This document shows, in pieces, positions 12,001-15,000 of a DNA stretch of 15,894 nt. A program made the position numbers. Location of the stretch: assembly GCA_037137395.1 (NCBI GenBank), contig JBAXKK010000063.1, positions 1 through 15,894 of the forward strand, in the 5' to 3' direction. Position 1 is the stretch's first letter. The number at the start of each line of letters is the position of its first letter. Source of the DNA: Elusimicrobiota bacterium (lineage in GTDB: Bacteria > Elusimicrobiota > Elusimicrobia > Elusimicrobiales > UBA9959).

Positions 12001-15000
12001 TAACTCTGTCGATCGCATCTTGTATCTTTTGGCGCTGGCTGTCGTCGATGTATGGCCATATCGCTTCTATGGCCGGCAAATGTTTCACAAGGTCGACCCG
12101 GACGGCGCCCGGCGGAAATATCTTGTCAAAGTTCGCTTTGGCCCAATTTTTAAGGAAGGTCTGGCGGTCGGTGATAGTCCTGTCGGCCCATTGCTCGGGC
12201 GTCTCCGCGTCCTTTGAAATCGCGGCTGTCGTTTTGCCGCCCAGCGTGTCCCAGGACAGTGAAGCTGTTTTTGTAAGTTCCGTTTTATCGGAGGCGTATT
12301 TGGACACCCAGGGCAGAAGCTTGTCCGGTTGTGGGCCCATATCGAGGTCGGGGCCGCAGAGCGCGCAGGGCCGACTCTCCAGTCGCACAATCAACCCGGT
12401 GCGGATAATATATTCGTTATCTGCGTCGGTGAAAAAATCGCCCAGATCTTTTATCGCGTTCTCATTTGTCAGAATATATCTGGCCCGGGGTTCGTCTGCG
12501 GCCTGCAGCTTGTCCAGAAGTTTGAATTCATTCTTGTCGCCGTTAAGGCCGGTCAGGCAGGTGTCGGCCTCGGCGGGAGAAAATATCTTCTCGGAGATGT
12601 TGGTTTCGCACGCCGTTATCACGGCTTGCTCCTGCTCCGTAAATTCTTGCGCGCCGCCAGGTATGGCCTGGCCCAGCCCTAAAAACAGCAGTATAAATAT
12701 CTTTTTCACGTCTTCTCCCCTGATGCGCGGCTAATGAGTTGTCAGCTTCTTAACAATATAGAGGATAAATCATGTTCTGTCAAGGTTCGTTCGGCCCCTG
12801 TTTGCCCGGTGAGACTAGCGGATAAACATTCTGTGCAGCGTCTTCAGAAGCGGCTCACCATGCCTGAAAGCCGTTACGAGCGCTATCTTTTCAGGAGAGA
12901 CTGATATCCTGATTATTTGACGGCCGTCCGCCGCGCCGGCCTCGCCGAGGGCTTTGCGGATTCCGGGAGCGTCCAGCTTTGAGCCGATAATGTGTATCTC
13001 GGCCGAGTCCCCGTTTTTGCGGATGGCAAAGCAGGTTACTGCCGGCTTCTGGCGGGCGAGTTTAAAATTTCCCACAAGGGTTCCCGTTGCGCTCTCAAAA
13101 GACGAGCGGAGATGCAGCGGTATGGAGTGCTTCTTCGCGTAGGCTATGGCGCGCAACTGCCGCACTTCGGTGCCCGAGCGTGCCAGCTCCATCACCGCAT
13201 CATAGGAGATGCGCGATACTTTTTTTGCCTGCGGCACGATGGTGGGATTGGCCGTGTAGATGCCCTTAACATCGGTGTAAAGCTCGCACATCTCAGCTTT
13301 GAGCGCGTGGGTCAGAACGACAGCCGTAAAATCGGAGCCCCCGCGGCCAAGGGTGGTCGTGTCTCCCTCTTTTGTGAAGCCCTGGAAGCCCGCCACTACC
13401 GCTACCCGGCCTTTTTCTAATTCCCGCAATACGCGGGCCGGACGGACCGAAACTATTTCCGCGTCCGTATGCCGGGCATCTGTTTGTATTCCGGCTTGCG
13501 CGCCGGTAAGCGAGACGGCCTTTACGCCTGCGCGCGCTAAAGCCATGGCCATGAGAGCGGCGCTGATCTGTTCTCCGGCTGCCAGCAGCGCGTCGAGCTC
13601 CCGCGGGTTCGGCTTTGTTGTGAGAAGTTTTGAAAGGGCCAGCAGGTCGTCTGTGATATCAGCCGGGGCGGAGACCGTCATGACCACGGCAAAGCCCCGG
13701 CGGCGCGCGGAAGCTGCCCGTTCGGCCATGATCTTTATCTTTTCAGGCTCGGCCAGAGAGCTGCCGCCGAATTTCATCACTACTATTTTCATCAGGAGAT
13801 ATCCCGTAAAACTAAAAGCGCAAAGCGTAAGTTGTAAGTCGTAAAACGCAAATCGTAAAACGGGAATAGCCAGCAAAATAAAGAAATAAATTACTTCCCT
13901 AATTACGCTTCCCGCTTTGCGCTTCCCGATTTACTACTTCCGCTTTACGCTTTGCGTTTTACGATCCCTCTAAACCATGGTCGCCGTGACGCGTATAACC
14001 TCGGACAGTGTTGTCACGCCGCTCCGCGCCTTTACGATGCCGTCCATGAGTAACGTGCGCAGTTTGCCGGTCTGGATGGCGGTGCGGCGTATCATGTCCG
14101 TGGGGCTGTGGTCCAGAACCTGTTTGCGGACTTCTTCGTTCATGATCATTAGTTCAAATATGCCGGTGCGCCCCAGATAGCCGGTGTTGCGGCAGGCGGG
14201 ACAGCCTTTTTCTACTTTATATTCCGCTCCGGGCTTTAGTATAAGCTCCTTTACAGCTTTGCCCTCAGCGGGGTCCATATTCTTTACGAATTCATTTACC
14301 ATGGCTTCGGCCGGTGGCGCCGCTTTCTGCGCGCATTGCGGGCATATCTTTCGCACCAGCCGCTGAGACATGGCGCCCAGCATGGATGAGGCTATCAGGA
14401 AGGGCGGGACGCCCATCTCGAAAAGTCTTTCTATGATGCTCGGGGCGCTTATAGTGTGGATAGTTGTGAACAGGAGGTGACCGGTAAGGGCGGAGCGCAG
14501 GCTGATCTCTGCCGTCTCATAGTCCCGGATTTCGCCTACCATAATCACATCCGGATCCTGTCTTAGTATGGTCCTGAGGCCTTCAGCCCAGGTGAAGCCG
14601 GTCTTAGCGCTGATCTGCGCCTGATTTATACCTTCCAGCCGGTATTCCACGGGGTCCTCTAGCGAGATGATGTTTATCATCGGGGAATTGATATCTTTAA
14701 GCATGGCGTAGAGCGAGGTGGTTTTGCCCGATCCGGTTGAGCCGGTGATAAAGAATATTCCGTAGGGGTTGCGGATCAGCTTCTTGATCATGGCAAGGGA
14801 TTCCTGATCCATTCCGAGCTGCTCCAGGTCCAGACCCAGCTGCTGGCGGTCAAGGACCCGTAAAACAAGCTTCTCTCCGTTTACGGTGGGAAAGGAGGAG
14901 ACTCGTATCTGTATGGCTCGTCCCGCCAGCATCTTCTGGAATCTGCCTTCTTCGTTCCGGAAGGATGTCGGAGGTTCCGGGTCGAATCCGGCCAGCACGC

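Follow-up and report, generated by a model that had tools for sequence, protein, structure and literature searches.

Between the genes for a GspE/PilB-type ATPase and an aspartate kinase, the window (the whole 15,894-nt stretch of Elusimicrobiota DNA that was analysed) holds a long hairpin whose two arms are built of degenerate heptamers (Table 1). On the transcribed, minus strand the pyrimidine-rich arm starts about 6 nt past the gspE stop codon. TRF places the period-7/14 arrays of the window's hairpin at 13813-13862 and 13903-13963, and the spacer folds with an energy of -54.1 kcal/mol (z = -5.8), a stability reached by none of 200 shuffled sequences. The hairpin is covered, with 0 differences, by a contig from another sample of that study, and positions 7000-15894 of the window gave 0 Rfam matches at the gathering score. 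A copy of the hairpin's centre, turned the other way, lies 5.3 kb from it at about 8470-8537; over 65 positions, adjacent arm bases among them, 58 agree. This second copy belongs to a mosaic in which a CGTAAAG arm and a right arm of GCCATA type are accompanied by a CGTAA hairpin with the loop of the first.

Table 1. Features of the window discussed in the text
Feature	Position	Strand	Placement or basis
Short hairpin of the (T/C)AGTGG family	7423..7499	+	Between ribF and a truB-like gene (named by sequence likeness rather than by profile scan); TRF 7476-7491; kept in the closest relative, G221, by alignment
Mosaic of the same element class as the hairpin at 13793..13969	8379..8537	+	Between ribF and the dihydropyrimidinase gene (convergent)
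Aspartate kinase, downstream host gene	12815..13792	-	TIGR00657, over cut-off; start from a simple gene caller
Hairpin-bearing spacer	13793..13969		Between two minus-strand genes (GspE/PilB-type ATPase and aspartate kinase)
Purine-rich arm, about 9 degenerate units of the CGTAAA(G/A/T) family	13805..13867	+	Sequence, TRF 13813-13862, fold
Inner stem and loop, non-periodic	13868..13900	none	Fold and sequence comparison between loci
Pyrimidine-rich arm, about 9 units, reverse complement of the left arm	13901..13963	+	Sequence, TRF, fold
GspE/PilB-type ATPase, upstream host gene	13970..15301	-	NCBIfam TIGR02533/TIGR02538, under the equivalog cut-offs

Hairpins of this kind are a feature of the whole genome, an assembly of 2.70 Mb in 174 contigs in which a simple gene caller finds 2212 genes. 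The TRF counts of the first-pass annotation were reproduced exactly (489 arrays of period 7, 181 of period 14 and 56 of period 21), and its observation that they lie mostly between genes holds with this gene caller too, 387, 152 and 44 of them being intergenic, as against 35 of 219 at period 9 and 7 of 66 at period 6. Merging left 536 arrays, 415 of them intergenic, and for 129 of these 415 a reverse-complement copy that is at least 70% identical lies no more than 160 nt away (3 and 10 in the controls), somewhat below the earlier figure of 152 of 394. An independent detector returned 555 arrays at lag 7, compared with 45-172 at lags 5, 6, 8, 10 and 11, and found a reverse-complement partner for 210 of 454 mostly intergenic period-7 arrays (controls 17 and 20); autocorrelation in intergenic DNA peaks at lags 7, 14 and 21. 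The three other sites first offered as examples do form long stems, the range quoted on contig C6 being only partly one hairpin. Period 8 had served as a clean control, which it is not: among 87 intergenic 8-mer arrays, 24 likewise have a partner (control 2), and the 8-mers belong to the same class as the heptamer arrays. Nested mosaics of at least two families were found in 37 of 292 spacers. Since arrays show no excess near contig ends (9 observed, 8.6 expected), and occur on 37 of the 45 contigs longer than 20 kb, and since the window's hairpin is identical in the second-sample contig, an assembly artefact is unlikely. The mirror-image heptamer hairpins between genes are real.

The heptamer had been described as differing freely from site to site. 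Our results show instead that 387 of the 454 arrays fall into seven families, CGTAAA, GCCATA, GCCATT, TAAG, AGTG, AGGG and AGATT, which we defined from example arrays. Each family has a fixed polarity: 188 of 191 family-assigned paired arms face one way, and when pairs are detected arm by arm, 68 stand in one order and 0 in the other, with the left arm usually purine-rich. The earlier statement that the arrays sit mainly between co-directional genes is borne out by the 148 hairpins: 126 stand between co-directional genes, 11 between convergent and 7 between divergent ones (spacers of these three kinds that measure at least 50 nt number 981, 118 and 176 in the genome). Within co-directional spacers, left-type arms are nearer the upstream stop in 164 of 175 cases, 98 of the 175 lying within 10 nt of it, and right-type arms are nearer the downstream start in 127 of 151. 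Unpaired arrays occupy the same positions as paired arms and have weak partners on the side predicted (42 versus 13 of 196), as expected if they are decayed hairpins.

The first-pass annotation had proposed that the heptamers grow by local polymerase slippage and that selection on the pairing of the arms keeps the hairpins as terminators or mRNA stabilisers. Their strong folding, the many left arms close to a stop codon and the regulation of Haemophilus hmw by an RNase III-cut heptamer hairpin, as described in the available part of PMC12721329, speak for this model, and a slightly lower MFE of the sense strand (70 of 126 hairpins, p=0.046) is the sole result in its favour among the tests we made of it. 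Local origin or compensatory selection predicts that an arm matches its own partner best, and for this reason the comparison of arms counts against the model: identity to the own partner is 0.850 and to other arms of the same family 0.860, the own partner being the better match in 24 of 60 cases (p=0.12, n=60). No G·U bias of the sense strand was found in the hairpins of this genome (119 G·U versus 115 A·C); of 126 co-directional hairpins, only 9 are followed by a U-rich tail, with at least 6 U in the next 10 nt; and hairpins show no enrichment in convergent spacers over co-directional ones. Neither the own-arm compensation and transcribed-strand G·U bias of a selected RNA structure, nor the short GC-rich stem followed by a U-tract of an intrinsic terminator, is seen here. 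The fixed polarity of each family, together with the copying of loops, the joint swaps of both arms and the sites found empty in close relatives (all described below), also tells against the model, and we consider it improbable, even though the hairpins are real as structured elements and may affect the stability or processing of mRNA. Arm length does shift by whole units between relatives, as slippage predicts; it is the local origin of the arrays that is not supported, as non-periodic loops are shared between loci and both arms change family together.

A neutral version of the same idea, in which slippage makes the arrays, template switching makes the inverted copy and no element lies behind them, could draw on the prevalence of heptamers, which among the long simple repeats of prokaryotes are the most common and have been ascribed to slippage (Mrazek 2007, cited in PMC4679880, of which a part was available). 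Template switching, however, predicts a higher identity to the own arm than to other arms, and both polarities, and neither was found; it also leaves unexplained the gene that such arms enclose (see below). The polarity of 68 to 0 and the association with this gene largely refute a reading that we hold to be very improbable.

Comparison with relatives showed that entire hairpins are gained, lost or exchanged for another family at orthologous sites. For the closest relative, G221, the comparison covers 771 kb, about 30% of that genome, with gene anchors 92% identical. Both genomes lack a family array in 396 of 480 orthologous spacers, while 37 spacers have the same family and 6 overlap in family; 3 are strict swaps, and an array is present only in our genome in 29 and only in G221 in 9, many of these last two groups being decayed copies below the detection threshold. 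By eye we found about seven further swaps of both arms (e.g. C66:7342, C118:691, C73:6547 and C38:14510) and several short or empty sites, such as C58:13777 (13 versus 107 nt) and C26:15064 (77 versus 25 nt). Between the two genomes, spacers that hold arrays have a median identity of 0.61 (n=78), those that hold none 0.82 (n=182). Conserved terminal inverted repeats and a target-site duplication are the marks of a MITE; here the arms are inverted and vary by family, and the filled and empty sites, whose divergence precludes formal testing, show no clean duplication by eye. At the gspE site of the window, G221 has a different loop; several of 29 relatives have unrelated periodic hairpins there, and in others the spacer measures 15-28 nt.

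Copying between loci within the genome is also apparent. A match to a loop at another locus was found for 37 of 112 loops, versus 0-2 in shuffles, a generous count given that some loops hold nested arrays and that shuffling breaks palindromes. Several families have in common a central palindrome, AAGGAnnTCCTT, and 21 of its 41 intergenic matches lie near arrays (control 1 of 21).

What could be the source of these hairpins? A single gene of the assembly, C76:12004-12351, exceeds the cut-off of PF05635 (125.4 bits, cut-off 33.8), and it also exceeds that of TIGR02436 (121.5 bits, cut-off 24). Its product is a homologue of the Xanthomonas protein XCC0516/2GSC (E 1.3e-30 to 2GSC), an Avd-like four-helix-bundle protein of the 23S-rRNA-IVS type. 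To our knowledge, proteins of this very common family have no catalytic role or assigned function. The gene is enclosed by CGTAAAG arms and their reverse complement, that is, by the family of the window's hairpin. This cassette sits between the genes for the subunits of lysine 5,6-aminomutase (the beta subunit by profile) and hence outside rRNA, which refers to this copy and not to a possible additional one in rRNA, as no 23S gene was found in the assembly. At the orthologous site, G221 has the same cassette and two congeners, G220 and G222, have an empty 20-nt spacer; the flanking gene is missing from three further genomes searched.

The arrangement is general in the phylum. A survey of 96 loci yielded 93 matches and 86 distinct full-length standalone genes, 84 of them with enough flank to be scored. 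Inverted flanks (score at least 12) surround 73 of these 84 homologues, versus 14 of 454 control genes (from 509 small genes of our genome); direct flanks were found in 19 and reversed ones in 8. Flanks that are both inverted and periodic on both sides surround 63 of 84, versus 4 of 454. In the 73 homologues with inverted flanks the upstream arm is purine-rich in 66, and the best unit among the phylum's homologues is 7 nt in 45 and 8 nt in 20. Outside the phylum, 30 loci gave 27 genes that could be scored, of which 21 have inverted and 18 periodic and inverted flanks. Both neighbours, taken as the longest ORFs, are co-directional with the gene in 75 of 100 cassettes. A GxxExxY/PDDEXK_3 partner of the gene was represented by one sub-cutoff match only. 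Long-range inverted pairs enclosing other genes were absent at 250-450 nt; at 450-2000 nt they did not exceed direct pairs in frequency (27 versus 49), in a run whose filter removed the C76 cassette itself. The G·U and A·C counts of the cassettes are 144 and 118.

Cassette and hairpins share arm families, polarity, co-directional placement and the position of the left arm at the upstream stop. Six of the seven hairpin families double, by eye, as cassette arms in relatives or in this genome, and the motif GCAGA, found inside a cassette of G221, comes after 54 of 121 GCCATA arms and after 19 of 25 GCCATT arms. An orthologous site can carry the cassette or lack it, loops are copied, and arm length varies by whole units. 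The kinship of cassette and hairpins is well supported. We also considered stop codons in all three frames as the cause of the polarity of the arms; the rule fits TAAG, AGTG, GCCATA and CGTAAA, and the opposite is seen in AGATT and GCCATT. Stops occur in 1.92 frames of the cassette arms and in 1.57 after shuffling, and stop codons explain the polarity only in part.

Paired 7/8-mer arrays were found in five of six genomes with at least five homologues, in none of four with one or two matches and in none of ten without any, in small samples (12-20 kb per genome) of genomes that are kin; G160, with 9 homologues, had no paired arrays in 20 kb. Hairpin number does not track gene number, as our genome has about 148 hairpins and one gene, although small AT-rich genes may be absent from a metagenome-assembled genome. 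At the sites where relatives carry a cassette, arrays are only weakly enriched in our genome (10 of 19 distinct sites versus 463 of 1581, p=0.04; 6 of 19 at a stricter array threshold, p=0.14). For 30 of the 84 cassettes the flanking genes are adjacent in our genome, and none of these sites has a clearly same-family hairpin without a gene. The best candidate for a site shared by a cassette and a hairpin, on contig C35, runs into the contig end. No four-helix-bundle gene was found in the gspE spacer of the 28 of 29 relatives in which gspE is adjacent (spacers of 15-141 nt). Apart from the intact gene, no ORF remnant lies beside any array of our genome, and so the decay of cassette to hairpin has not been caught in the act.

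These observations bear on another reading, in which the hairpins are the primary element, spreading by host recombination or gene conversion between arms, and the gene is a passenger in the loop of an insulating, releasing stem. More than 100 hairpins per gene, loops that hold no ORF remnant, a loop core missing from the cassettes (the shared central palindrome was found in 0 of 84 cassette flanks) and the nested mosaics are what it would lead us to expect. Yet the samples of all ten genomes without the gene showed no paired arrays, and across phyla the arms flank the gene in 94 of 111 cases and with many different units, which a chance passenger would not need. We regard this reading as rather unlikely.

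It might also be supposed that the hairpins are REP/REPIN- or MITE-type non-autonomous elements that depend for their movement on a host transposase of the Y1 (HUH) or DDE type. Their architecture recalls the RAYT gene between inverted REPs, mosaics included (PMC2817692, in the part available), and the genome has four Y1_Tnp matches. None of the four, however, is enclosed by an inverted pair of period-7 arrays, two having one weak array each about 60 and 420 nt away; the gene that is enclosed codes for a four-helix bundle and not for a transposase, and the arms are tandem arrays rather than single palindromes. We judge this explanation quite improbable.

We propose that the hairpins are gene-less, non-autonomous forms of an IVS-like, probably mobile palindromic cassette, and think this probable. 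The cassette consists of a purine-rich periodic arm, with a unit of 7 and sometimes 8 nt, the PF05635/TIGR02436 gene and the reverse-complement arm, and the proposed order of events runs from cassette to hairpin. How it moves we can only infer: the unit may be co-transcribed with the host operon and its stem cut by RNase III, by analogy with the IVS of Coxiella rRNA (an RNase III domain was found in the genome); the ORF may be lost by recombination or slippage between the arms, and the short gene-less forms would still be copied in trans. The four-helix-bundle protein, a pentamer, could act in this copying as a nucleic-acid-binding accessory, as its relative Avd may suggest. The hairpins would then be tolerated passengers of operon junctions, selfish or nearly neutral, and not terminators tuned to their sites. 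More tentatively, there may exist in prokaryotes a widespread, undescribed class of mobile element without a transposase, in which an Avd-like pentamer reads the periodic 7/8-nt stem by its shape and not its sequence and drives the copying of cassette and hairpin to places directly behind stop codons; its footprints might include the ORF-bearing rRNA IVSs, the GGGAATC pairs of Xanthomonas and a large part of the heptamer excess that bacterial genomes show without explanation.

The intergenic heptamer excess of bacteria has hitherto been put down to polymerase slippage, and this genome links it to a four-helix-bundle gene, tying the repeats to a probable mobile element and not to transcription terminators. 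The test set is unusually large: about 148 hairpins from seven families, and a close relative in which sites can be seen empty, filled or swapped. Should the cassette reading be true, the origin of ORF-bearing rRNA intervening sequences would be explained, the PF05635 family would gain a testable substrate, and RNase III processing would be predicted at many operon junctions. To what was known, this genome adds a scale that spans many families, a polarity that is strict, a test of arm compensation that came out negative, and the loop copying and family swaps seen against a close relative.

Known systems are compared here through the available parts of the papers cited. In Coxiella burnetii, the terminal inverted repeats of the IVS (S23p) form a stem whose loop carries a PF05635-type ORF, with tandem heptamers in variable number just 5' of the ORF and an RNase III site at the first repeat (PMC4990558). 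The cassette is alike in having a PF05635-type ORF inside an inverted-repeat stem, and heptamers; it differs in lying between protein genes and not inside an rRNA gene, in arms that are periodic throughout and of many families, and in its approximately 148 hairpins without an ORF. The Avd protein of diversity-generating retroelements is a structural homologue of PF05635/2GSC (PMC10053308), and the protein P0001 matches NF033474 weakly (32.5 bits, cut-off 80). Unlike Avd, the gene of the C76 cassette has no RT, TR or VR beside it; the sole RT match of the genome belongs to a DGR-like locus on contig C52, where no period-7 arrays surround the Avd-like gene.

In Xanthomonas, about 185 intergenic arrays of GGGAATC have been described, with 70-75 close convergent repeats on opposite strands, the purine-rich strand by stop codons, and few between divergent genes; they form one G-rich family, were read as G-quadruplexes, and their loci were reported to be more conserved than controls (PMC4692102). 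According to its supplement, one array overlaps, on the same strand, the start codon of XCC0516, the gene of the 2GSC protein, and the available text of PMC4692102 carries no remark on this overlap or on a link to a cassette. The two systems have in common paired, polar intergenic heptamers and the same rules of placement, whereas here there are seven 7-mer families plus 8-mers, mostly without G-tracts, and a fast turnover, the opposite of the reported conservation. Paired heptamers and ORF-bearing rRNA IVSs have been published separately. In the literature covered, outside which lie most subscription papers and bioRxiv supplements, we found no link between the four-helix-bundle gene family and periodic inverted arms, and the available part of PMC6749651 yielded nothing on inverted heptamers. 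A parallel in genomic layout is offered by REP/BIME/REPIN-RAYT, in which the gene lies between two inverted repeats and there are more than 100 dispersed gene-less doublets, mosaics and lineage-specific repeats (PMC2817692). Our genome likewise has a gene in inverted repeats and many dispersed intergenic inverted doublets and mosaics. RAYT, however, belongs with the IS200/IS605-like tyrosine transposases, and each REP is one palindrome, whereas the repeat-flanked gene here is PF05635, a non-catalytic four-helix bundle, and its arms are tandem arrays.

The STRR heptamers of cyanobacteria are also abundant intergenic heptamer arrays. Heptanucleotides of Calothrix are cited in PMC4692102, and the TAACTGA repeats of Beggiatoaceae are direct, stand before start codons and are almost never inverted, with no gene enclosed by them in the available part of PMC4679880. 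Like these, the arrays studied here are abundant, intergenic and have stops in all three frames on one strand. By membership, then, the element is neither an IVS, nor a RAYT/REP, nor an intrinsic terminator; its architecture is that of an IVS-type cassette with REPIN-like satellites.

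At the empty cassette site of the congener G220 (locus L278), compared with positions 11950-11990 of contig C76 in the source assembly G000, GTAAAACGG lies at the upstream stop codon and resembles a single arm unit of the cassette that G000 and its closest relative, G221, have inserted at this position. It is possible that this reflects a target likeness for cassette insertion.

Several family members have fused forms, in which PF05635-like domains lie within open frames of 1100-2000 aa, and these were excluded from the flank test of periodic arms around standalone homologues. 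A minority of the four-helix-bundle genes (loci L251, L276, L092 and L142) bear long direct periodic flanks, instead of or besides inverted ones. By eye, the pyrimidine-rich right cassette arm appears at six loci (L085, L089, L099, L100, L103 and L110) to fall within the following gene, at the 5' end of its coding sequence, in a stretch that resembles a hydrophobic leader.

A small GC-rich palindrome often stands ahead of a periodic hairpin, or alone after a stop codon. G000 also holds a second dispersed palindromic element of about 80 nt, not built of heptamers, found by blast at 23 loci (the tabulated copy and 22 further places), and its presence or absence differs between G000 and G221 at orthologous sites. 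Another insertion, MITE-like and roughly 250 nt long, contains nested inverted repeats and recurs at some 30 further places (32 binned blast loci, some of them adjacent); the tabulated copy is missing from G221, where the spacer measures 12 nt.

Coordinates of the variant genes and other elements (G000 unless another genome or locus is named)
Feature	Location	Remark
PF05635-like domain in long open frame	G054:C11:220530; G222:C3:40227; G161:C131:3804	examples
GCCGC-NNNN-GCGGC-type palindrome	L183, L188, L195, L197; C2:52290, C4:40635	
Non-heptamer palindrome	C90:1346-1430	
MITE-like insertion	C29:11043-11302	
DGR-like locus	C52:11795-14836	minus strand
TR-like stretch	C52, near 13400-13490	AAC-rich; inside DGR-like locus
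Avd-like gene	C52:13686-13982	inside DGR-like locus
VR-like gene end	C52, near 14075-14190	inside DGR-like locus

Finally, contig C52 carries a DGR-like locus that combines a reverse transcriptase (RT, PF00078) with TR-like, Avd-like and VR-like parts, and the VR-like gene end differs from the TR mostly at A positions.
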